From a virus (lineage: Duplodnaviria; Heunggongvirae; Uroviricota; Caudoviricetes): a stretch of DNA of 10,951 nucleotides. A program made the translations under genes and the position numbers. Where the stretch lies: the IMG/VR virus record IMGVR_UViG_2693429774_000016. One strand, written 5' to 3'. Position 1 is the first letter of the stretch, and each line of letters opens with the position of its first letter. The notes under the pieces were generated by a model that saw nothing but the letters and a program-made list of their open reading frames with translations, was not told where the DNA came from and searched no databases. This document shows, in pieces, positions 1-10,951 of the stretch.

Positions 1-180
1 GCTTATATTCCTACAGGGATTGCTTATGCTATCTGGTCAGGAGTCGGTATTGTCCTGATTAGCTTACTATCATGGGGATTTTTCGGCCAACGGTTGGACC
101 TGCCAGCCATTATAGGCATGATGTTGATTTGTGCCGGTGTGTTGGTTATTAATTTATTGTCACGAAGCACGCCACATTAA
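1..180 (+). CDS. emrE: SMR-family multidrug efflux transporter EmrE, C-terminal 59 codons (5' end lies outside the window)
   Basis: Frame 1 translation [59 protein letters not shown] ends at TAA 178-180 and matches the C-terminus of E. coli EmrE as I recall it, with one conservative I/V difference. Recalled sequence, not a database hit. Confidence 0.9.
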
Positions 181-210
181 AAATAATTTGTTTTTAAACG
201 ACTAAAATAT

Positions 211-255
211 GGAGGCTCGTATATTTATATGGGCCTCGTTTTATGCTTTTTGTTA
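211..255 (+). terminator. Weak candidate intrinsic terminator downstream of emrE
   Basis: Short GAGGC (212-216) / GCCTC (233-237) stem with an AT-rich loop, followed by a T-rich stretch GTTTTATGCTTTTTG. The stem is only 5 bp, so this is tentative. Confidence 0.25.
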
Positions 256-435
256 ATGTCTTTAGTTTTTATTCATTCTTTTGTGCTTTCAAGATTATGG
301 TGTAAGAAAATTGCAATACGATTATTGTTGTATATTCAAGATAATGTGACCTTAATTGTCTTTTTAAATAAAAATTAAACAAAAATCATATCTCACCACT
401 AAGGTTTATAAAAGCATACTTTAGCAGGTGTCACC

Positions 436-1962
436 ATGAAAAAAGCCATAGCATATATGCGATTTTCATCACCAAGTCAGATGTCTGGTGATTCATTAAA
501 CCGCCAGAGAAGGCTTATTACTGAATGGCTAAAGGTAAATAGTGATTATTACCTTGATACCGTAACGTATGAAGATTTGGGGTTAAGCGCATTCAATGGA
601 AAGCATGCACAATCAGGAGCTTTTTCGGAATTTTTAGATGCTATAGAACATGGTTATATATTGCCAGGGACTACATTGTTAGTTGAAAGTCTGGACAGAC
701 TTTCAAGAGAAAAAGTCGGTGAGGCGATTGAGCGTCTGAAATTGATTTTGAATCACGGTATTGATGTTATAACTCTTTGCGATAATACAGTCTATAATAT
801 TGACTCATTGAATGAGCCATATTCATTAATAAAAGCCATACTTATAGCACAAAGGGCAAATGAAGAAAGCGAGATAAAGTCAAGTCGGGTTAAATTATCA
901 TGGAAGAAAAAACGGCAGGATGCACTGGAGTCAGGCACGATTATGACGGCGTCTTGTCCGAGATGGCTCTCATTGGATGACAAAAGAACGGCTTTTGTTC
1001 CAGACCCCGACAGGGTGAAAACTATTGAGCTAATTTTTAAACTCAGGATGGAAAGGCGCTCATTGAATGCAATAGCCAAGTATTTAAATGATCATGCTGT
1101 AAAGAATTTCTCAGGAAAAGAAAGTGCATGGGGACCTTCTGTAATTGAAAAATCATTAGCGAATAAAGCTCTGATAGGTATATGCGTACCTTCATATCGT
1201 GCAAGAGGTAAAGGAATAAGTGAAATCGCTGGCTATTATCCCAGAGTCATATCAGATGATTTGTTTTACGCTGTGCAGGAAATTCGGTTGGCACCTTTTG
1301 GTATTAGCAATAGTAGCAAAAATCCTATGTTGATAAATCTACTTCGAACAGTTATGAAGTGCGAGGCTTGTGGTAATACCATGATTGTTCATGCGGTATC
1401 TGGAAGTTTGCATGGCTATTATGTTTGTCCGATGAGAAGACTGCATCGATGTGACAGACCATCAATAAAGAGAGATTTGGTTGATTATAATATCATTAAT
1501 GAGTTGCTTTTTAATTGTAGTAAAATCCAACCAGTTGAAAACAAGAAAGATGCTAATGAAACTTTAGAGTTGAAAATTATTGAGCTCCAGATGAAAATTA
1601 ATAATTTAATTGCTGCATTATCTGTTGCGCCTGAAGTTACCGCTATAGCAGAAAAAATCAGAGTATTAGATAAGGAATTACGAAGGGCTTCTGTATCATT
1701 AAAAACTTTGAAGAGTAAAGCGGTGAGTTCACTTGGTGATTTTCATGCTATTGACTTAACCAGTAAAAATGGGCGAGAGCTATGTCGTACACTTGCCTAT
1801 AAAACATTCGAAAAAATCATAATCAATACAGATAATAAAACCTGTGATATCTATTTTATGAATGGCATTGTTTTTAAACACTATCCTTTAATGAAAACAA
1901 TATCCGCCCAGCAGGCGATAAGTACTCTCAAATATATGGTTGATGGTGAGGTTTATTTTTGA
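436..1962 (+). CDS. ybcK: Large serine recombinase (resolvase/invertase-type catalytic domain plus zinc-ribbon recombinase domain); likely prophage integrase/recombinase
   Basis: 508-aa ORF with SD AGGTG 5 nt upstream of the ATG. N-terminus YMRFSSPSQ fits the serine-recombinase catalytic-Ser motif. A Cys-x2-Cys ... Cys-x6-Cys segment (CEACGNT...YYVCPMRRLHRCD) is typical of the zinc ribbon of large serine recombinases, followed by a coiled-coil-like region. Size and position directly after emrE match the K-12 DLP12 gene ybcK; the symbol is from memory. Confidence 0.85.
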   Translation: MKKAIAYMRFSSPSQMSGDSLNRQRRLITEWLKVNSDYYLDTVTYEDLGLSAFNGKHAQSGAFSEFLDAIEHGYILPGTTLLVESLDRLSREKVGEAIERLKLILNHGIDVITLCDNTVYNIDSLNEPYSLIKAILIAQRANEESEIKSSRVKLSWKKKRQDALESGTIMTASCPRWLSLDDKRTAFVPDPDRVKTIELIFKLRMERRSLNAIAKYLNDHAVKNFSGKESAWGPSVIEKSLANKALIGICVPSYRARGKGISEIAGYYPRVISDDLFYAVQEIRLAPFGISNSSKNPMLINLLRTVMKCEACGNTMIVHAVSGSLHGYYVCPMRRLHRCDRPSIKRDLVDYNIINELLFNCSKIQPVENKKDANETLELKIIELQMKINNLIAALSVAPEVTAIAEKIRVLDKELRRASVSLKTLKSKAVSSLGDFHAIDLTSKNGRELCRTLAYKTFEKIIINTDNKTCDIYFMNGIVFKHYPLMKTISAQQAISTLKYMVDGEVYF

Positions 1963-2073
1963 GTAATAATCACTTTTTCAACCGTGCTATAGTAAGAAAG
2001 TTAGGTAAGTACAATAAAATTATCTATCCTGAACGAAGCGTCCTGAGCTATGGTTTTACTATAGGGACTGCCA

Positions 2074-2373
2074 ATGGATGCTGGCGTTCTCGTTCTAGCA
2101 GTTCAACAATACCCAATCACAAAACAATTCACTGATAACAAACTTTGTGCACGTGCTTGGTTATGGCGAGCAGGTGATGTGATGTTAACTGCCTGCCAGA
2201 ACGTTACTCCACTACTTCAGGTTGCGGAGCACCGCGAAGCCGGCCGCTTTACTTCTATCGAGCAAGAATATCCCCAGATACTCAACAGAGCGCGAGCAAT
2301 CCTCGCCAGAGAAACGGCACATGTAAAATTCCAGCCGTGGCTGGATGATAAGTGGAGTCGAGTGTTACCATAA
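2074..2373 (+). CDS. Hypothetical protein (99 aa), unknown function; possibly phage cargo or a gene remnant
   Basis: ORF with a GGGA-type weak RBS and a good stem-loop plus T-run terminator 45 nt downstream. No family recognised from the sequence. Confidence 0.45.
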   Translation: MDAGVLVLAVQQYPITKQFTDNKLCARAWLWRAGDVMLTACQNVTPLLQVAEHREAGRFTSIEQEYPQILNRARAILARETAHVKFQPWLDDKWSRVLP

Positions 2374-2416
2374 TTCCGTCAGAATCTGTTCCAATAAAGT
2401 CACTAGTTAGAAATAC

Positions 2417-2456
2417 TGCCAGCATTCTACGATGACGGAAGTGCTGGCATTTTTTG
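2417..2456 (+). terminator. Rho-independent terminator candidate
   Basis: TGCCAGCA (2417-2424) pairs perfectly with TGCTGGCA (2442-2449), with extra TTC/GAA pairing inside, followed by TTTTTT at 2451-2456. Confidence 0.55.
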
Positions 2457-2631
2457 GGTAATATGCGAGTCCATTTCATAAAATACGGGTGCTGTAAACT
2501 GGACGATATAATCTAAAATATACCATTACCAGTAGCGTTCAAATCGCTATGTGCCGATACGGATAAAATTATATTGATTGTGCACATACCTTATTGGATA
2601 TTACTGAGGGGTATTTATATAAGGTGTAACG

Positions 2632-3141
2632 ATGATGTGGAACTTTGACAGTGCCGACTTAAGTGCAATAGCAGCAGGTATTTCTGCGTTTGGCACATTA
2701 GCCGCAGCGGGGTCGGCGCTTGCAAGTTGGTACACGTCAAAAAAAGCGCTGCAGCTACAAAATAGAGTTTACCTTTATGAGTCTTTAAAGGCTTGCGCTG
2801 AGAGAGCCAATTCATCAGCTAAAGATAAGCGCGGATCTGAATGGAGCGTTAATGATGCAGCGGATATCATCAGGTGCCTAGTACGGGCGATGGAGATCAT
2901 CAAGCAGGATAGCCAGCAGAAAGAAGGTAATCAGGCATTAATGTTGAAACAGTACTTTGTTAATCTGCTAATAATGGAACTGTACGAGGAAGTTCATAAC
3001 GGTGATGCGGCTGATTCTGTTTTTAAAAGTACGGAACCTACACAAGTACTTGATAACTTATGGAGCAAATGGCAGGAGGCTATAGCTTTTTTTGATATTT
3101 GGAATTACCCAGTTGCGACTGAGGAAGACTTGGCAGACTAA
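2632..3141 (+). CDS. Hypothetical protein (169 aa) with an N-terminal hydrophobic, probably membrane-spanning segment and an acidic helical C-terminal domain; unknown function
   Basis: SD AAGGTG 5 nt upstream of ATG 2632. Residues ~10-35 (LSAIAAGISAFGTLAAAGSALASWY) form a hydrophobic helix. No recognisable family. The K-12 DLP12 neighbours ybcL and ybcM, as I recall them, are not here. Confidence 0.6.
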   Translation: MMWNFDSADLSAIAAGISAFGTLAAAGSALASWYTSKKALQLQNRVYLYESLKACAERANSSAKDKRGSEWSVNDAADIIRCLVRAMEIIKQDSQQKEGNQALMLKQYFVNLLIMELYEEVHNGDAADSVFKSTEPTQVLDNLWSKWQEAIAFFDIWNYPVATEEDLAD

Positions 3142-3335
3142 TTTTCAGCACATTTGATTTCCAATAATCAACCAGCCATAATCATGCCATTGGGGCCTGA
3201 ACAACTCCGGTGACTTCTGCGCTAAACGGGGACGTTTATGCGCACATACAATCCAACCTCTCTTCTCCATTCACAGATGCAGAAATGCACCTGCGATATT
3301 TTGCATCCAGCGTTTGATCTCTGCGGAGGTGAAGC

Positions 3336-3590
3336 GTGAACCTCCCACAAGATGGTATCAAATTGCATCGCGGTAACTTCACCGCTATCGGTCGGCAGAT
3401 CCAGCCTTATCTGGAGGACGGCAAATGCTTTCGCATGGTGCTTAAACCGTGGCGCGAGAGACGCAGTCTTTCCCAGAATGCACTCAGCCACATGTGGTAC
3501 AGCGAAATCAGTGAATACCTCATCAGCAAGGGTAAAACGTTCGCCACTCCAGCTTGGGTATCCGCACCGGCGGGCGCGTGCTGGCGGTAA
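3336..3590 (+). pseudogene. ybcN: NinB/YbcN-family protein, 5' fragment, truncated by fusion to tail-fibre DNA
   Basis: GTG start with GGAGG 8 nt upstream. The first ~73 codons contain WRERRSLSQNALSHMWYSEISEY, resembling the conserved RSLDQN...W core of lambda NinB and the recalled K-12 YbcN. Homology ends at about 3552 and the reading frame runs into J-like sequence. Confidence 0.55.
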
Positions 3591-4537
3591 ACAGCCAGAC
3601 CCGGACGCTGACGCTCGACCGTGAAATCACGCTGCCATCTTCCGGCACCACGCTGATAAGCCTGGTTGACGGGCAGGGGAGTCCGGTCAGCGTGGAGGTT
3701 CAGTCCGTCACCGACGGCGTGAAGGTGAAAGTGAGCCGTGTTCCTGACGGCGTTGCTGAATACAGCGTATGGGGGCTGAAGCTGCCGACGTTGCGCCAGC
3801 GCCTGTTCCGCTGCGTGAGTATCCGTGAGAACGACGACGGCACGTATGCCATCACCGCCGTGCAGCATGTACCGGAAAAAGAGGCCATCGTGGATATTGA
3901 GAACACCCCTGACGGCATGCAGAGTCAGGTGCTGCTGGCGGCGGACAGGATTGCGATGGTTAATCCTGCGAATGGCAACACAAAACCGATGTTTGTTGGT
4001 CAGGGCGATCAGATATTCATGAACGACGTGTTCCTGAAACGCCTGACGGCCCCCACCATTACCAGCGGTGGAAATCCACCGGCATTTTCCCTGACACCGG
4101 ACGGAAAGCTGACCGCTAAAAATGCGGATATCAGTGGCAGTGTGAATGCGAACGCCGGGACGCTCAACAATGTCACGGTAAATGAAAACTGTACGATTAA
4201 GGGCATGCTGGAGGCGACTCAGGTCAGAGGTGACTTCGTTAAAGCTGTATCCAAATCATTCCCGAAACAGGCTGGTACGTGGGGTAATACGGAAACACCA
4301 AACGGGACGGTTACAGTCACCATCAGCGATGATCATAACTTTGACCGTCAAATCATTATTCCGCCCATTATCTTTAACGGAATAGCGTATAGCGATCCGG
4401 GAAGTGGTAATATTGGTGCTCATACGCACTCCGTTGCGATTGGCTCACATGGACACACCATCACCGTTAACGCTGCTGGTAACGCGGAAAACACCGTCAA
4501 AAACATCGCATTTAACTACATTGTGAGGCTTGCATAA
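3554..4537 (+). CDS. Lambda J-like host-specificity / tail-tip protein fragment: central segment plus C-terminal region with internal deletion and a divergent C-terminal tip; likely a remnant
   Basis: Translation contains [22 protein letters not shown]...[18 protein letters not shown]...[35 protein letters not shown] and later [56 protein letters not shown]. Both match lambda J segments as I recall them, but the intervening J sequence is missing and the last ~60 residues differ. No genuine N-terminus: the ORF begins at a TTG just after the ninB-like junction. Confidence 0.7.
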
Positions 4538-5121
4538 TGGCATTCAGAATGAGTGAACAACCACGGACCATAAAAATTTATAATCTGCTGGCCGGAACTA
4601 ATGAATTTATTGGTGAAGGTGACGCATATATTCCGCCTCATACAGGTCTGCCAGCAAACAGTACCTATATTGCACCGCCAGATATTCCGGTAGGCTTCGT
4701 GGCTGTTTTCAACAGTGATGAGGCATCGTGGCATCTCGTTGAAGATCATCGGGGAAAAACCGTCTATGACGTGGCTTCCGGCGACTCGTTATTTATTTCT
4801 GAACTCGGACCTCTACCGGAAAATATCACCTGGTTATCCCCGGAAGGGGAGTTTCAGAAGTGGAACGGCACAGCCTGGGTGAAGGATACGGAAGCAGAAA
4901 AACTGTTCCGGATCCGGGAGGCGGAAGAAACAAAAAACAGCCTGATGCAGGTAGCCAGTGAGCATATTGCCCCGCTTCAGGATGCTGCAGATCTGGAAAT
5001 CGCAACGGAGGAAGAAACCTCGTTGCTTGAAGCCTGGAAGAAGTATCGGGTGTTGCTGAATCGTGTTGATACATCAACTGCACCTGATATTGAGTGGCCT
5101 GCAATCCCTGTTATGGAATAA
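4537..5121 (+). CDS. tfa: Tail fibre assembly protein (lambda Tfa family), apparently full length
   Basis: 194-aa ORF beginning [39 protein letters not shown], near-identical to recalled lambda Tfa. Its ATG overlaps the upstream stop (TAATG), the usual fibre/chaperone coupling. Confidence 0.9.
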
Positions 5122-5240
5122 TAGTTTTGTGATATGCCGCAGAAACGTTATATGCAATAACGTGCTGCGGTTGGCTGATGTACTTTCGAGAGTGTATTGA
5201 ATAATTTCCAACCGTCATTAATTTTATTTATTTTTTGTAT

Positions 5241-5264
5241 GAGAGGATTTGAACCTCCGAGCCT
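5241..5264 (-). other. tRNA-Pro 3' fragment (T-arm relic), probable integration-site scar or module junction
   Basis: Minus-strand sequence TCGGAGGTTCAAATCCTCTC (plus 5241-5260) has a canonical T-arm (GGAGG stem, TTCAAAT loop, CCTCT). It matches the T-arm region of E. coli tRNA-Pro (proL-type) as I recall it over about 20 nt. No acceptor stem, CCA end or 5' half is present. Confidence 0.5.
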
Positions 5265-5454
5265 CGACACCTTATGACAACGCGATATTGCCTTGATGAC
5301 CGCCATGTGCCAAAATAACCAATTGATAAATAAGTTGATTTTAATTGGTTGGAAGCAAGTCAGGTCAAATTCAGCATTCCGCTCTCTGTATCGGATAGTT
5401 AAATTTTTCTATAACTGATAGTAATATGTTAAAACTCACACAGATAAATTATCA

Positions 5455-7437
5455 TTGCTCAACAAGTATAATGGAGTTCCCGTGGATACAGCAGAACATG
5501 ATGGCAAGTTTGCTTGGGCTAGTTTTTATGAGGCTTTTGCCAACGCGTTACTGACTTGGCGAAATCGTAGAGATGAATTAGTCAAAGGTATTCATCTAAT
5601 TGCCTCGGGTGTGGAAGGAATGTCCCATCTGCAGGACAAATCTATTATGGGAGAGATCTTTCCCTTAAAAGACATTTGTCCGTTTACTACTATGGGCTTG
5701 TTCAATCGTAACTTGACCGACAGCAATCGCAAAATTATTGCTGCCAAGCTAGCGAATTTGTTGGGCGTGAACGAACCGATTCCTGACTCCTTTGCCGGAA
5801 TCCCTCTGTTGAATAACCAAAAATCTTGGTTCTTTGGTTATGAAAAGTCACGCGACCCTAATGACATTGAATGCTTGTGGGAAATGTTCTCACAGGCAAT
5901 GATCTTTGCGGATAACCAGAATACTAACTCTGCAGACTTCACTGCCGCATATGACATCGCTTCTACAGTAATGAATGTCGGTTGGAATCTCACCATGGGG
6001 TTGTACTGGACCCGTCCTTGGTTCTACCCCACTTTAGATAGCCAGTCGCAGTATTACATTCAGACAGTGTTAAACATTAAGATCATTAAAAACGGGGCAA
6101 AAGGTCGCTGTAGTGGACAAAGTTACCTGAGTCTTATGCGGGCGCTGAACGAGGTCTTTACCCAACCAAACTATCCGGTTCATTCTTTCCCAGAACTTTC
6201 CTTATCAGCGTGGAATACAGATCTTAGCCAGTCTAAAGATGAGGTGGCAAATAGAACGTGGAAAGCCTCTTTACTGAATAAAATTAAGGCGTTATGCCTG
6301 AAAAAAAATGGCCCTTATTTCACTGCTTCGGAGTTGGAAGAAAACTACTTGGACGTATTCAAGGTAGAGCATCCTGAGAGCAAAACTGTTACAAGCTCAA
6401 TCTACTTTTATCTACAGAAACTATGCAATGATGATGAGTTAAAGTCCCTCGAGTCCGGAAATTATGAATACCTGAATTTTGAGAAAAACGAATCCCAGAC
6501 GATAACTGAGGAAACTGTCGAAGAGAGTGCGCTGTTGCCAAAACTCACCCACGTTCCTTATGACATCAGTCATCTGGTGCAGGATGGCTGTTTCTTGGAA
6601 GAGGCTAAGATCCAACTCACACTTCAGCGCCTGATCGACAAGAAAAACCTGATATTACAAGGACCACCCGGAACTGGAAAAACTTGGTTAGCGCGACGTC
6701 TGGCGTACTGCTTGATGGGAGAAAAAGCACCTGAGCGTATTAGCGCGGTGCAATTTCACCCGAACCTCTCTTACGAAGACTTTATTCGAGGCTGGCGTCC
6801 AGGTAAAGAAGGGCAATTGACGCTAATTGATGGACCTTTTGTAAATGCAATCAAAACTGCAGTCAATAATCCTACCTCGAAATATGTGGTGATAATTGAA
6901 GAGATTAATCGTGGCAATCCGGCGCAAATCTTCGGTGAAACACTCACGTTGATGGAAGCAGATAAACGCACGCCGACTGAGGCATTATCTCTTTCCTATC
7001 CTAAAAATGCTGATGAAAAAATATACATTCCTGAGAATCTATATATCATCGGTACGATGAATATTGCAGACCGCTCACTCGCACTACTTGACCTAGCGCT
7101 GCGCCGTCGTTTCGCGTTTATCGATCTAAAGCCAGCTTTTAATGACGCGTGGAGAAACTGGGTAAATTATAATTACGCAATTGATTTTGACATGTTAGCA
7201 TTCATCAAATCTCGACTGACGGTATTAAACGATATGCTGGCAAAAGATGTTACCTTAGGACCACAGTTTTGTATCGGTCACAGCTATGTCACCCCAGCTA
7301 TCGGCCAAAAAATCAACGATGCCCAGGCTTGGTATGAACAAGTCGTTGATACAGAGATCTGCCCTTTGCTCGCCGAATATTGGTTCGATGCTCCAAATAA
7401 AGTCGATGAAGCCAGAAAAGTGTTATTAGCAAAATGA
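5455..7437 (+). CDS. McrB-like GTPase subunit of a type IV modification-dependent restriction system, with an unrecognised ~400-aa N-terminal domain
   Basis: C-terminal ~260 aa align to recalled K-12 McrB: Walker A GPPGTGKT (6661-6684), Walker B-like VVIIEEINRGN, GTP-specificity motif MNIADRSLA, and RRRFAFIDL. The ORF begins at TTG 5455; GTG 5482 preceded by GGAG with a 5-nt spacer may be the true start. The N-terminal domain resembles nothing I recognise. Confidence 0.85.
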   Translation: MLNKYNGVPVDTAEHDGKFAWASFYEAFANALLTWRNRRDELVKGIHLIASGVEGMSHLQDKSIMGEIFPLKDICPFTTMGLFNRNLTDSNRKIIAAKLANLLGVNEPIPDSFAGIPLLNNQKSWFFGYEKSRDPNDIECLWEMFSQAMIFADNQNTNSADFTAAYDIASTVMNVGWNLTMGLYWTRPWFYPTLDSQSQYYIQTVLNIKIIKNGAKGRCSGQSYLSLMRALNEVFTQPNYPVHSFPELSLSAWNTDLSQSKDEVANRTWKASLLNKIKALCLKKNGPYFTASELEENYLDVFKVEHPESKTVTSSIYFYLQKLCNDDELKSLESGNYEYLNFEKNESQTITEETVEESALLPKLTHVPYDISHLVQDGCFLEEAKIQLTLQRLIDKKNLILQGPPGTGKTWLARRLAYCLMGEKAPERISAVQFHPNLSYEDFIRGWRPGKEGQLTLIDGPFVNAIKTAVNNPTSKYVVIIEEINRGNPAQIFGETLTLMEADKRTPTEALSLSYPKNADEKIYIPENLYIIGTMNIADRSLALLDLALRRRFAFIDLKPAFNDAWRNWVNYNYAIDFDMLAFIKSRLTVLNDMLAKDVTLGPQFCIGHSYVTPAIGQKINDAQAWYEQVVDTEICPLLAEYWFDAPNKVDEARKVLLAK

Positions 7438-8555
7438 CGACAATAACCGGGAGTGAGCAACATACAGCATCACGTATTCCCATGCGAAATATCTGGATGC
7501 TGATGCTGTACGCTTCAGATCTGTTTCGCCAGTTAGGGCGCAATCAGATCGCAGTAGAAGATAACCCAGCAGAAATCCCCGACCTGGTGGCGACAATCCT
7601 CCTTCATGAGATTACGCTGCGCCGACGTCGCAATTTAAATATGGGATACCAAACTTGTCATGCGGCCCTGAACCGGGTGAGAGGGCGCATTGACATACTG
7701 TATACTGCCAGTCATCAACTGCTGGAACGGGGACAGGTTGCCTGCCATTTTCAAGACATAACCCTCAACACCCCCCGAAATCGCTATGTTCGCTGTGCGT
7801 TAGAACGTCTGGCCTCAATCATAGTGAAACCGTCTTTGGCGGCAGATTGCCATTTTATGGCAATATCACTTCGCCGTGAGGGGATAAATGGAGGATATCC
7901 TGCCCCCCGCGAATTACCCTCAGTGTGGCGTTTTGGACGCCATGATGCCGCAGATAAACCGATGGTCGATGCCGCACGATTAGCTTTTGAACTGCTGATG
8001 CCGACCGAAGATCAAGGCCAATATCTTTTACCTGCGCCCTCAAATAACCTTTACTGGATGAGAAGACTATTTGAAAAAGGTATCGCTGGCTTATATCGTG
8101 TACACCTTGCCAAAACAACTTGGCAGGTCTCTGCAGGGAAAGAGCTGAAATGGGCGTTGAGCGATCAAAGTGCAGGTAGTGCAGAGATTTTCCCGACAAT
8201 GAAGTCAGACATTATTCTGGAACACAAGACTGCCCAGCGGCGTATTATTATCGATACCAAATTTAATTCGATTCTGACAAAGGGTTGGCATCGGGAGCAA
8301 TCACTACGTAATGGCTATATTTATCAGCTATATACCTACCTTAGAACACAGGAGAACAAGACGGATCCGCTTTCGCTCAATGCCGCTGGTCTTCTACTTC
8401 ATCCAGCTGTTGGCTATATGCTTAATGAGTATGTTGTCACTCAGGGACATAAGATCCATTTTGCTACAGTAGATATGACGGTAGATGCTAAAGCAATTAA
8501 AAAACAATTGCTGGCAATAGCCCATGATTGTGCAGGAGTCGCGGTTGATGACTAA
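7434..8555 (+). CDS. McrC-like PD-(D/E)xK endonuclease subunit of a type IV restriction system
   Basis: 373-aa ORF whose ATG overlaps the McrB-like stop (ATGA at 7434-7437). The N-terminal PMRNIWMLMLYA resembles K-12 McrC PVRNIYYMLTYAW. SDIIL ... IIIDTKF parallels McrC TDITI ... IVDAKYY, so the catalytic D ... D-x-K appears intact. Confidence 0.85.
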   Translation: MTTITGSEQHTASRIPMRNIWMLMLYASDLFRQLGRNQIAVEDNPAEIPDLVATILLHEITLRRRRNLNMGYQTCHAALNRVRGRIDILYTASHQLLERGQVACHFQDITLNTPRNRYVRCALERLASIIVKPSLAADCHFMAISLRREGINGGYPAPRELPSVWRFGRHDAADKPMVDAARLAFELLMPTEDQGQYLLPAPSNNLYWMRRLFEKGIAGLYRVHLAKTTWQVSAGKELKWALSDQSAGSAEIFPTMKSDIILEHKTAQRRIIIDTKFNSILTKGWHREQSLRNGYIYQLYTYLRTQENKTDPLSLNAAGLLLHPAVGYMLNEYVVTQGHKIHFATVDMTVDAKAIKKQLLAIAHDCAGVAVDD

Positions 8556-8911
8556 CCATCCTATAAGGCACTGGCTGTAATATAATCAATAGTTTCAATT
8601 AAGTAGCTGTTATCCGTGCTTAGTCATCATATGACGCACCACGGTCTAATTTTCCTGCTCATACATTGATATATCCTTGTCGTGCCCGGAAAGTCGCAGT
8701 CCACTATGAGGTATACCGATTGCCAGCACCAAAAGCTTCTTTGTGATTATTATATCGGGGAATGCCTATTTTTTTAGTGACAATATCAGATAGCAATTAA
8801 TAAGCGGTGCCGGTAATGGATGTTATGTTTAATGTATAGACACAGCCATCATAAACTAAACGTCTGTTGTTCGCTCATAACCGACATTTATCTCAGTTAT
8901 GGAGGATAATT

Positions 8912-8992
8912 ATGTATGCAGATAATGGGGCAGACAGTCGTGGAGTAAACAAGGTTTTGCACTGCTTGGCGGCATCGTTATCTTATTTTTAA
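8912..8992 (+). CDS. Candidate small ORF (26 aa, MYADNGADSRGVNKVLHCLAASLSYF) with a strong Shine-Dalgarno; speculative
   Basis: GGAGG at 8901-8905 sits 6 nt upstream of ATG 8912; stop TAA at 8990-8992. It lies in an otherwise ORF-free arm. No homology recognised. Confidence 0.2.
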   Translation: MYADNGADSRGVNKVLHCLAASLSYF

Positions 8993-9255
8993 TTATGTGC
9001 CTCTTAACATAAGTTGGGACAAAACAGAGACACATAAGGTCTCACAAAGGTCTGCAAGGCCTCACATGTATTGAGATGTTAATAAAATGTAGACTTGTAA
9101 TTTGGATATAAATGGTAGAGAAAACCTTTCCCCAAAATAAAAACGAACGTCAATGAAATCAAACGGTTGAATAAAGTTTATTTTGGCTAATAAAAAGACA
9201 ATAAAATAATTTTTATCGTTAAATATCAATGACTTGAATTCATGGTTTTTATATA

Positions 9256-9420
9256 CTGCTGCGCCATATGGGTTGGACTGAAGCGGCTGACCTGATTGTT
9301 AAAGGTATGGAAGGCGCAATCAATGCCAAGACCGTAACTTATGACTTCGAACGTCTGATGGAAGGCGCTAAGCTGCTGAAATGTTCAGAGTTTGGTGAAG
9401 CGATCATCGAAAACATGTAA
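9256..9420 (+). pseudogene. icdC: Isocitrate dehydrogenase 3' fragment (icdC-type attachment-site duplication), last ~55 codons only
   Basis: Translation [54 protein letters not shown] matches the C-terminus of E. coli Icd as I recall it. The sequence upstream of 9256 is non-coding and AT-rich, so this is an isolated fragment. Its length, about 165 bp, equals the icd duplication known for e14-type integration. Confidence 0.85.
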
Positions 9421-9443
9421 TCTCTCCATGTGTTAAATATTGA

Positions 9444-9475
9444 AACGGGCGTATAACACGCCCGTTGTTTTATTT
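9444..9475 (+). terminator. Rho-independent terminator (icd-type), placed between the convergent icdC fragment and iraM
   Basis: AACGGGCG (9444-9451), loop TATAACA, CGCCCGTT (9459-9466), then GTTTTATTT. Confidence 0.8.
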
Positions 9476-9522
9476 ATGTGGATATTATTAATAGCATATC
9501 GAGCATATTTATATGAAGCCCA

Positions 9523-9846
9523 TTACTTGAGCCCATATGGGCATATTTTTATAATGCAACTATTATGTAAACATTTATTTGTTATTTTGCTTTCTCCTGG
9601 AGGACACTCTTGACTGCTTTTGAGTAAACTCCATAAATCCTTGTTGAATGGTGCGATGTGATAAATAGTAATAGGATATTCTTTATCCTTAAGGATAATA
9701 CCAGACTTAACCGGTGTAAATATACTGCCAGGAGGGAGAAATATAGTAGATTGATACCAGATGATCATTTTCATATTACCCCATATGGCTGAAAAAGATA
9801 TACCACATGTAGGTTGAATTACCGTGTCAATTACTATCCACTTCAT
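9523..9846 (-). CDS. iraM: Anti-adaptor protein IraM (inhibits RssB-mediated RpoS degradation)
   Basis: 107-aa minus-strand [35 protein letters not shown]... matches K-12 IraM (formerly YcgW) as I recall it in length and sequence. Its position next to icdC agrees with the K-12 gene order. Confidence 0.85.
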
Positions 9847-10309
9847 TTGTTATGTCTTATCCCACGGTATTTAATATGGTTCATTAGGATGTTTATTTCT
9901 TGATTTTGCATATGAGTATATTACCCCCCCCCTCAAAAAAATAAATTAATTAAAATGATGGCTTATATAAAATAAAATTTAAAGCAAGGAATCTCAATGG
10001 ATGTTAAACAAAATGAGATTTTGTGAAAGCAATAAATTATTGACTTCGTTTTAGATTTGTTTAGCTATAATGTTATACATTCAAATGACTGAACATCCTG
10101 TAATTAAAACATAGCCTTTATGCTACTTTGTGCCAATTTGCTAAACATTATGGTTGCCTTTTTATATAACGATAATAATGAATATAAGCATGACATGAGA
10201 ATAAGGTTTCAATTTTTGAGTTATATAGGAATGATTTAACCTGTTCCTGGCTAAAATACATATAACCGGATGATGACTAAACCAAAATACATGTGCGTTA
10301 AGTATTGAA

Positions 10310-10337
10310 ACGGACGTGTGGCACGGCCGTTGTTTTT
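10310..10337 (+). terminator. Second, degenerate icd-type terminator copy (stem-loop plus T-run)
   Basis: ACGGACGTG / CACGGCCGT stem with one mismatch, followed by TGTTTTT. The preceding ~25 nt (CATGTGCGTTAAGTATTGAAACGG) closely resemble the sequence before the 9444 terminator (CATGTGTTAAATATTGAAACGG). Confidence 0.5.
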
Positions 10338-10546
10338 ATAAATATGTTAACCGTTATAAAATAACGTATCAAAAGTCAAGTGATCACATTTCAAATATCA
10401 AGTTGATAGTATTAGTCTGGTGATTATTTATGGGTGACAATAAAAAGACAGTATTAATCATCCATAGAGATAGTCTCTGCACTTTTATTTCCATTATGCT
10501 AATGCCTTACTGAATTATGAAGCATTTCTTAAGTATCCAACTTTAG

Positions 10547-10951
10547 CTAGATTAATGGTTTATTATTTTCTACATCTTCAATATATAAAAGCGTATTATC
10601 AATGGCGTAGTAACTGCGTTTGTTATGATTAACATCAGTAACCCACCGGAAAACGCCCGCACCTGCCAGTGTTGAACAGTATTCCCGAAATGTAGATTTT
10701 CCGCAAATATGAAGCAATGCGGCCTCTTTTATTTTAGCAGGGTTCTTGGTCGTACTAACTTTTAACAGGTTCCTGGTTCCTCTTAATAACAAAACCGTAT
10801 CATCGTGAGTAATAATTCTGATGTTATCCGTAGCCAGATAATAAATGTAATGTGCAATACGGTGATGTTTTAATTCTGAATAAAACCAGGAGAAGTTTTG
10901 CTCTTTTCTCACTTGCTCAAACATCTTTTGAAAAACAACGACCTGATCCAT
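10547..10951 (-). CDS. ycgX: Conserved hypothetical protein (YcgX-like); start codon is the last three bases of the window
   Basis: 134-aa minus-strand ORF beginning at the window edge (reverse complement of CAT at 10949-10951). In K-12 the gene next to iraM is ycgX, a protein of this size. Symbol assigned by synteny and memory only. Confidence 0.6.
   Translation of the reverse strand: MDQVVVFQKMFEQVRKEQNFSWFYSELKHHRIAHYIYYLATDNIRIITHDDTVLLLRGTRNLLKVSTTKNPAKIKEAALLHICGKSTFREYCSTLAGAGVFRWVTDVNHNKRSYYAIDNTLLYIEDVENNKPLI

Follow-up and report, generated by a model that had tools for sequence, protein, structure and literature searches.

Which genes does a prophage in the icd gene of Escherichia coli carry at its junction with the chromosome, and are these genes fixed or exchanged? 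The question is raised by IMG/VR record IMGVR_UViG_2693429774_000016, a stretch of 10,951 nucleotides (nt) of Caudoviricetes DNA (the whole stretch is called the window here), in which a two-gene operon resembling the restriction system McrBC stands next to icdC and iraM. An initial annotation, made from the sequence without database searches, had proposed that the operon takes the place that mcrA has in element e14 of K-12, and that this prophage end is an exchangeable defence-cargo locus. Our reading, to which we give a probability of about 0.8, is that the region serves a lambda-like prophage in icd as its slot for accessory genes, equivalent to the b region of lambda, and that it holds a self-contained 3.2-kb cassette of the McrBC family. 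The slot, its contents and its chromosomal border consist of the following features (ORF, open reading frame; aa, amino acids).

4537-5121, + strand: tfa (tail fibre assembly; Pfam Caudo_TAP, E 7e-44), the conserved left flank of the slot
5122-5373, no strand: left spacer, non-coding, outside the portable cassette, missing from the Salmonella and Pectobacterium copies
5374-8586, + strand: two-gene McrBC cassette, portable (mcrB-like gene and mcrC, preceded by about 100 bp), delimited by copies in other genera
5482-7437, + strand: McrB-like protein of 651 aa, the GTPase subunit (ORF from 5455/5482; start codon GTG, preceded by a GGAG ribosome-binding site; Pfam, NCBIfam and PDB matches)
7434-8555, + strand: McrC nuclease subunit (Pfam McrBC, NCBIfam McrC)
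8556-9001, no strand: right spacer, with no + strand ORF of 50 aa or more and one short ORF preceded by a ribosome-binding site
9002-9253, no strand: attP arm (P arm), the conserved right flank of the slot, also conserved in prophages without McrBC
9254-9420, + strand: icdC, the displaced original 3' end of icd (Pfam Iso_dh C-terminus), whose left edge is attR

The junction between prophage and chromosome (attR) lies at 9253/9254. Window 9254-10951 aligns at 99.8% to K-12 1211411-1213107 (icdC-iraM-ycgX), and this homology starts no more than 2 nt from the annotated right end of e14 (1211412). The McrBC-like genes sit just inside attR, so the operon does precede the icdC/iraM junction as had been claimed. 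The element is integrated at the 3' end of icd and has duplicated a fragment of that gene: at attL of an identical genome, the icd 3' end is replaced by a phage-borne copy, whose identity to window 9257-9473 (a segment that includes icdC) is 92.6%. The prophage integrase shares 60% identity with IntE, a likeness that fits the common attachment site of the two elements. The window as a whole is matched at 99.8-100% over its length by 18 complete E. coli genomes, and one of the identical genomes (L001; sampled loci carry L numbers) gives the element in full: icd, integrase, excisionase, IS3, exo, P, ren, emrE, ybcK, J', tfa, then two restriction genes, icdC and iraM. It is a decayed lambdoid prophage of about 16 kb inserted in icd.

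For the frequency of each state of the site we used 5,426 complete E. coli genomes. The attP arm of about 250 bp was found in 1,476 of them and the McrBC module (5122-9253, at least 80% coverage) in 289, where it is 98.8-100% conserved over its full length, while about 1,187 further genomes match only the arm (9002-9253; 91-97% identity) and do not carry the module. Genomes with any module match have it in a median of one place and a maximum of two, and the sampled full-length hits each lie in a single place with icdC beneath the match. The empty site was searched with a synthetic query, the 5' part of icd joined to icdC-iraM-ycgX, counted if at least 80% was covered in one place, and it was present in at least 2,976 genomes, a minimum count, as iraM is missing from B2-type strains. 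Since icd is contiguous with iraM-ycgX in at least 2,976 genomes and the module occurs in 289, the operon does not belong to the chromosomal core.

To see what else the site can hold, we read the sequence upstream of the arm in a sample of 13 loci, including 11 genomes with arm-only matches. Seven configurations were found among the 13 loci, with these occupants.

L006, L008, L009, L019, L020: sitABCD alone
L003: sitABCD and a 256-aa hypothetical protein (WP_000567449.1)
L021: sitABCD with GNAT, HTH and acetyltransferase genes
L004 (strain PRO_A-1422): Septu PtuA/PtuB, a ThsB-like TIR protein and PDC-M50A
L005, 4275-8777: DUF2971 (a PDC-S31 candidate), DUF4236, a 209-aa hypothetical protein and DUF3800
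L007, 1-9000, first block: Mn-catalase, ferritin-like, YciE and con-10 genes with a methyltransferase
L007, 1-9000, second block: alpha/beta hydrolase, OmpT, HTH and acetyltransferase
L022: partial McrBC module with an mcrC truncated by IS1

Thus the content upstream of the arm is not invariant. The flanks are: every variant sampled shows a fixed slot between the conserved 3' end of tfa and the 250-bp attP arm. When other icd prophages are aligned to the window, the left homology ends at 5058-5174, in tfa or just past it, and the right homology resumes at 9002-9016 in 7/7 variant loci (L003-L009). On the right the boundary is tight, as expected of a functional attP arm. Short 3' fragments of tfa (about 4956-5076) recur ahead of cargo blocks, and together with the scattered left boundary they suggest repeated recombination in tfa, not a site-specific cassette mechanism. 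In L007 the two cargo blocks are separated by a second tfa 3' fragment, which suggests that cargo was stacked stepwise by recombination in tfa. Besides, segment 5153-5258 of the left spacer recurs with 82% identity upstream of sitA in L003. With conserved flanks and variable content, the slot is exchangeable in the lambdoid icd prophages.

The slot is a general cargo locus, in which defence systems are part of the cargo and not all of it. Its defence content comprises McrBC, Septu with a TIR protein, and PDC-S31; PADLOC, run on some of the loci, matched the last three (in L004, PtuA at 2e-197, PtuB at 3e-116 and the ThsB-like TIR protein at 4e-40), while the other cargo is non-defence, namely sitABCD, stress and outer-membrane genes. 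The metal transporter sitABCD fills the slot more often than any other cargo: it does so in at least 740 genomes, the number that have the version with the 256-aa protein, whereas McrBC does so in 289. The term defence-cargo locus is therefore too narrow, although defence systems are present. As side observations, the DUF2971/DUF4236/209-aa/DUF3800 set of L005 may be an uncharacterised defence set, and WP_000567449.1, encoded between sitA and the attP arm (L003 8011-8781), had no Pfam or PADLOC match. The sampled sit-carrying strains (L003, L006, L008, L009, L019-L021) also lack iraM and ymgK (window about 9473-10290) and have ymgL and then ycgX directly after icdC; the gene adjoining attR itself therefore varies between lineages.

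How far does the comparison with e14 hold? The order at the K-12 end is indeed pinE, mcrA, icdC, iraM, and the system in the window is indeed a different one of the type IV family, with two genes matching McrBC against the single HNH protein McrA. In both elements the junction is the same to within 2 nt, the integrases are related, and a type IV restriction gene comes last before attR and is transcribed toward it. However, the e14 backbone, with P2/Mu-like tail genes and the pin invertase, is unrelated, and the equivalence of position is an analogy only. With 11-nt words, blastn of window 1-9253 against the interior of e14 gave no similarity, and neither e14 genes nor a pin invertible segment were seen in a gene content that is lambda/DLP12-like. 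Judged by this gene content, the window prophage is lambda-like and not an e14 relative. The e14 end itself is nearly invariant: its 231-bp arm occurs in 339 genomes, and pinE-mcrA-arm in 329 of these. A divergent and more complete e14-like prophage likewise ends in pinE-mcrA, and a search for e14-type prophages ending in something other than mcrA found essentially none. Exchangeability is thus shown for the lambdoid family and not for e14.

The nearer counterpart is lambda. Its gene order is tfa, then ea47, ea31 and ea59, then attP, int and xis, and the window tfa shares 95% aa identity with lambda orf-194/tfa. Because the operon lies between this tfa and the attP arm, as ea47/ea31/ea59 do in lambda, it occupies the equivalent of the b region. 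Both are non-essential accessory DNA in the same position, while the gene content and the integration site (attB-lambda versus icd) differ. The b region of lambda is used by engineers as a payload site. With PADLOC, lambda ea59/ea31 (L024 9510-11974) matched PtuA (5e-184) and PDC-M01A/PDC-M01B; this pair of a Septu-like ATPase and an HNH protein occupies the slot where L004 carries Septu.

Similar arrangements exist elsewhere. Defence hotspots of P2 and P4, reportedly described by Rousset et al. in 2022, also have a fixed position between conserved phage genes and interchangeable cargo including defence systems; they belong to another phage family, and in the icd slot a large share of the cargo is non-defence. 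The chromosomal site is itself catalogued. In the passages of Hochhauser et al. 2023 (PMC10121019) that concern it, ycgX-icdA is defence-island hotspot #24, found in 897 genomes and holding an occupant in 150, with entries for K-12 (Lit and restriction-modification (RM) type IV), strain C4 (AVAST II) and strain S30, where a 51-kb prophage has a two-gene RM type IV system two genes from the ycgX side. A general statement there holds that one type of mobile element can bear different defence cargo at dedicated positions. In the relevant passages of reviews of extraintestinal pathogenic E. coli (PMC7545054), the same prophage appears as PAI-icd, with Sit and Iss. The site is identical and its recorded cargo includes Lit, one- and two-gene RM type IV, AVAST II, Sit and Iss, but the passages of these sources on the site do not define the slot inside the prophage (tfa to attP arm), the cassette boundaries or this McrB variant. 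The idea of exchangeable cargo is correct in substance, yet the pattern was known and the site already catalogued.

The strongest competitor to a general slot is a dedicated defence hotspot, where selection would place anti-phage systems at the attR-proximal end of icd prophages, both e14 and lambdoid. Type IV restriction at this end in two unrelated phage backbones speaks for it, as do Septu and the TIR and PDC-S31 candidates in other variants, the Septu-like pair in the slot of lambda itself, and the Lit, RM type IV and AVAST II systems recorded in the published passages on hotspot #24. The predominance of sitABCD over McrBC, the variants with catalase/ferritin-like stress genes, OmpT and acetyltransferases, and the lack of variation at the e14 end all point away from it, and we regard it as possible but doubtful.

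What is the cassette, and where does it end? Copies that are 87% identical in nucleotide sequence were found in a CP4-like island of Salmonella (L010; window 5386-8551) and in a chromosomal islet of Pectobacterium (L013; 5374-8586), both with unrelated flanks. The Salmonella island contains CbtA/CbeA, RadC, antirestriction and DUF932 genes, and the Pectobacterium copy is a two-gene islet between metabolic genes. In L010 a protein of 1,345 aa, which gives faint hits to NACHT and DUF8371, comes directly after the cassette (13389-17426), and the setting looks like a defence-island context. On plasmids, only distant relatives were found (at most 47% identity), in other phyla. The right spacer, from 8587 on, is common neither to the copies in other genera nor to the other slot variants, and about 700 bp after McrC are without long ORFs. 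By eye, a tRNA-like T-arm string (GGAGGTTCAAATCCTCT, then an acceptor-like end) can be seen on the minus strand of the left spacer at about 5236-5279; a tRNA or att remnant upstream of mcrB was rejected, as ARAGORN and Rfam call none there.

A unit of 3.2 kb that recurs in three genera and three unrelated contexts with sharp boundaries, and whose spacers on both sides are unrelated to it, might also be an autonomous small mobile element that inserted secondarily, the slot being merely a tolerated landing site. Yet neither a transposase nor a recombinase gene is in the ORF list of the cassette, its flanks show no transposon-like terminal repeats, direct or inverted, and in E. coli it is confined to one location, which adjoins icdC in every sampled hit. 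We consider this origin improbable.

The protein assignments are strong, and chance matches are excluded. For the GTPase subunit, the start at 5482 was chosen from the RefSeq annotation in identical genomes and from the sequence. The protein is divided as follows.

5482-6225, + strand: DUF8425 (PF28527), McrB residues 1-248, at the N-terminus
6226-6486, + strand: DpnI_C-like winged helix, McrB residues about 249-335
6592-7437, + strand: McrB AAA+ GTPase domain and lid (Pfam AAA_5, NCBIfam McrB, PDB 6hz4/6ut6 with E about 1e-75)

The C-terminal part of about 280 aa is 47% identical to EcoKMcrB over 282 aa. It matches Pfam AAA_5 (E 8e-27), NCBIfam McrB (residues 378-654, E 6e-78) and the solved EcoKMcrB structures (E 6e-76). 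Aligned motifs include Walker A (GPPGTGKT versus GPPGVGKT in EcoK) and MNIADRS versus MNTADRS, where NIAD is the NxxD signature; the domain is an AAA+ GTPase of McrB type with Walker A/B and NxxD. McrC matches Pfam McrBC (PF10117, E 5e-21) and scores 356 bits with NCBIfam McrC (NF007277), where the curated cut-off is 338; although it is just 24% identical to EcoKMcrC, the nuclease residues D...D-x-K align (SDIIL...IIDTK versus TDITI...IVDAK). It is thus predicted to be a separate subunit carrying a PD-(D/E)xK nuclease. The ATG of mcrC (7434) overlaps the TGA of mcrB (7435-7437) as ATGA, and the two genes share 4 nt in this way in the Salmonella and Pectobacterium copies as well; RefSeq places the mcrC start instead at 7482. 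The two genes probably form a translationally coupled operon, mcrB first. Pfam and NCBIfam scans found a methyltransferase domain in neither protein, and mcrB and mcrC are the only long ORFs from tfa to attR (the others listed have at most 114 aa), in keeping with the McrBC trait of having no cognate methyltransferase.

Compared with EcoKMcrBC of K-12, the likeness therefore covers two overlapping genes with mcrB first, no methyltransferase, the GTPase domain, and an McrC with a DUF2357-type N-terminus and a D...DxK nuclease. The differences lie in the low identity of McrC, in the location (prophage-borne here, the hsd-mrr "immigration control" region for EcoK), and above all in the 370 N-terminal aa of McrB, which are unrelated to the 5-methylcytosine-binding domain of EcoK (DUF3578/ADAM).

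This N-terminus is the least-known part of the system. Homologues carry the Pfam labels DUF8425, McrB_lid and, weakly, DpnI_C, and the architecture is the same in homologues from other genera that are 66-88% identical across the N-terminal region. The DUF8425 family comprises 1,343 protein clusters at E of 1e-10 or below, and AAA_5 lies C-terminal to DUF8425 in 10/10 long homologues scanned. In many DUF8425 proteins (P0121-P0268, homologues of window 5482-6225) the domain begins near residue 160, with an extra N-terminal region ahead that gave a Pfam hit in none of those scanned; in some the domain is present two or three times, and one contains a long array of TPRs. The "NTD-wH-NTPase + McrC" proteins (N-terminal domain, winged helix, NTPase) are given as an uncharacterised putative type IV group in Front Microbiol 2024 (PMC11037411); the window system is likened to them by architecture. 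The paper only lists the group, and its sole purification attempt failed.

What would such an N-terminus recognise? DUF8425 is presumed to be a sensor of DNA or its modification. Characterised DpnI-type winged helices and winged-helix fusions read Dam-methylated GATC (G6mATC). DpnI itself was not detected directly by sequence with the winged-helix region as query. Because the E. coli host is Dam+ and the attack would kill it, Dam-methylated GATC should not be the target; 5-methylcytosine read in the manner of EcoK is also disfavoured, because the EcoK-type domain is absent. One speculative idea is that DUF8425 is a diverged HhH-GPD DNA-glycosylase-like reader that flips bases and, with the DpnI-like winged helix, aims McrBC at a modification that is not 5-methylcytosine, such as N6-adenine methylation of a non-Dam kind or a hypermodified phage purine. 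If true, DNA would be recognised on a new principle in an McrBC class that is widespread, with 1,343 protein clusters or more. Foldseek matches of DUF8425 to HhH-GPD glycosylases had E-values of at least 0.25, and the sequence and profile tests do not support the link: a profile search of PDB sequences found nothing, Pfam scans of 16 DUF8425 members gave 0 HhH-GPD hits, and hhalign against Nth and MutY returned a probability of 0.5% with a different segment aligned. It is a low-probability lead.

Taken together, a mechanism can be proposed for the slot and for the cassette. Cargo would be swapped mainly via recombination in the conserved flanks between lambdoid prophages, as the breakpoints suggest; the scattered breakpoints and tfa scars would be traces of such swaps, and no dedicated cassette integrase would take part. 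As for the product, EcoKMcrBC is established as a translocase that is driven by GTP, forms a ring and activates a PD-(D/E)xK nuclease. By homology, the cassette may act as a type IV (modification-dependent) restriction system: its N-terminal module (DUF8425 and DpnI-like winged helix) would recognise a feature of foreign DNA, the GTPase ring would translocate DNA and recruit McrC, and the PD-(D/E)xK site would cut. The target is probably a phage-type modification in another context. A lysogen protected against such DNA might be helped to retain even a badly decayed prophage.

Several points count against this reading. PADLOC matches McrB solely via its ATPase domain and recognises McrC with none of its models. 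A consensus sigma-70 promoter was not found upstream of mcrB on the + strand, where site counts equal the shuffled expectation. The cassette is not always maintained, at least one genome having a copy truncated by IS1: in strain WCHEC050613 (L022 6248-7462), mcrB and the 5' part of mcrC were lost through an IS1 insertion/deletion, and what remains of McrC is a fragment of 132 aa adjoining the attP arm. The genome collection behind the counts is clonally biased. Finally, megablast and tblastn found the cassette or a DUF8425 protein in 0/50,697 sequenced phage records, so transfer inside virions is unsupported.

The promoter result, the IS1 truncation and the heavy deletion of the window prophage (IS3 insertion, truncated J and, as read in L001, missing head genes) would also suit a decaying, non-functional remnant that hitch-hikes in a defective prophage, but this is the least probable account, given that both ORFs are intact with conserved catalytic motifs, that the module is kept full-length in its 289 genomes, including an apparently complete prophage, and that homologues in other genera retain the architecture. 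That prophage is in strain 027_SK3, where the operon (99% identical) lies directly downstream of an apparently complete lambda-type structural module running nohD/terminase, J, lom, stf and tfa.

The other genes of the window are as follows.

436-1962, + strand: YbcK-like large serine recombinase, 508 aa (ORF list and domain searches)
2074-2373, + strand: P22AR_C fragment (ORF list and domain searches)
2632-3141, + strand: hypothetical protein, 169 aa, without family match (ORF list and domain searches)
3554-4537, + strand: tail-tip J, truncated (ORF list and domain searches)
9523-9846, - strand: iraM, the first chromosomal gene beyond the prophage (NCBIfam IraM, 172.6 bits, cut-off 121), an identity that also matches the annotation in K-12 and identical genomes
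10547-10951, - strand: ycgX (ORF list and domain searches)

The first three of these lie in the deleted middle of the prophage (436-3141), which has emrE upstream in L001 and whose gene content, with emrE, resembles DLP12. In tfa, window 4880-5078 is matched with 214 bits (gathering score 117) by IS009 (RF02111), an Rfam family for a candidate intergenic small RNA of E. coli. The match falls entirely within the 3' end of the coding sequence. The matching piece recurs as scar fragments ahead of cargo blocks in other prophages, so that the family may model a mere conserved tfa remnant.

In conclusion, current understanding is not overturned, and the locus is a fairly ordinary case of prophage-borne exchangeable accessory genes, whose remaining interest lies in the clear boundaries of slot and cassette and in the uncharacterised sensor module of this McrBC variant. 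The variant lends itself readily to studies of what a large uncharacterised McrB family recognises. In practice, the conserved flanks could serve to collect cargo that is uncharacterised, for instance the DUF4236/DUF2971/DUF3800 set and the sit-linked protein of 256 aa. The views of the site as a pathogenicity island (PAI-icd, Sit) and as a defence hotspot (#24) refer to one locus. It shows in numbers how diverse accessory functions, including restriction, Septu/TIR defence, metal uptake and stress genes, are spread across E. coli by a single chromosomal site, icd, and a single slot inside a prophage.

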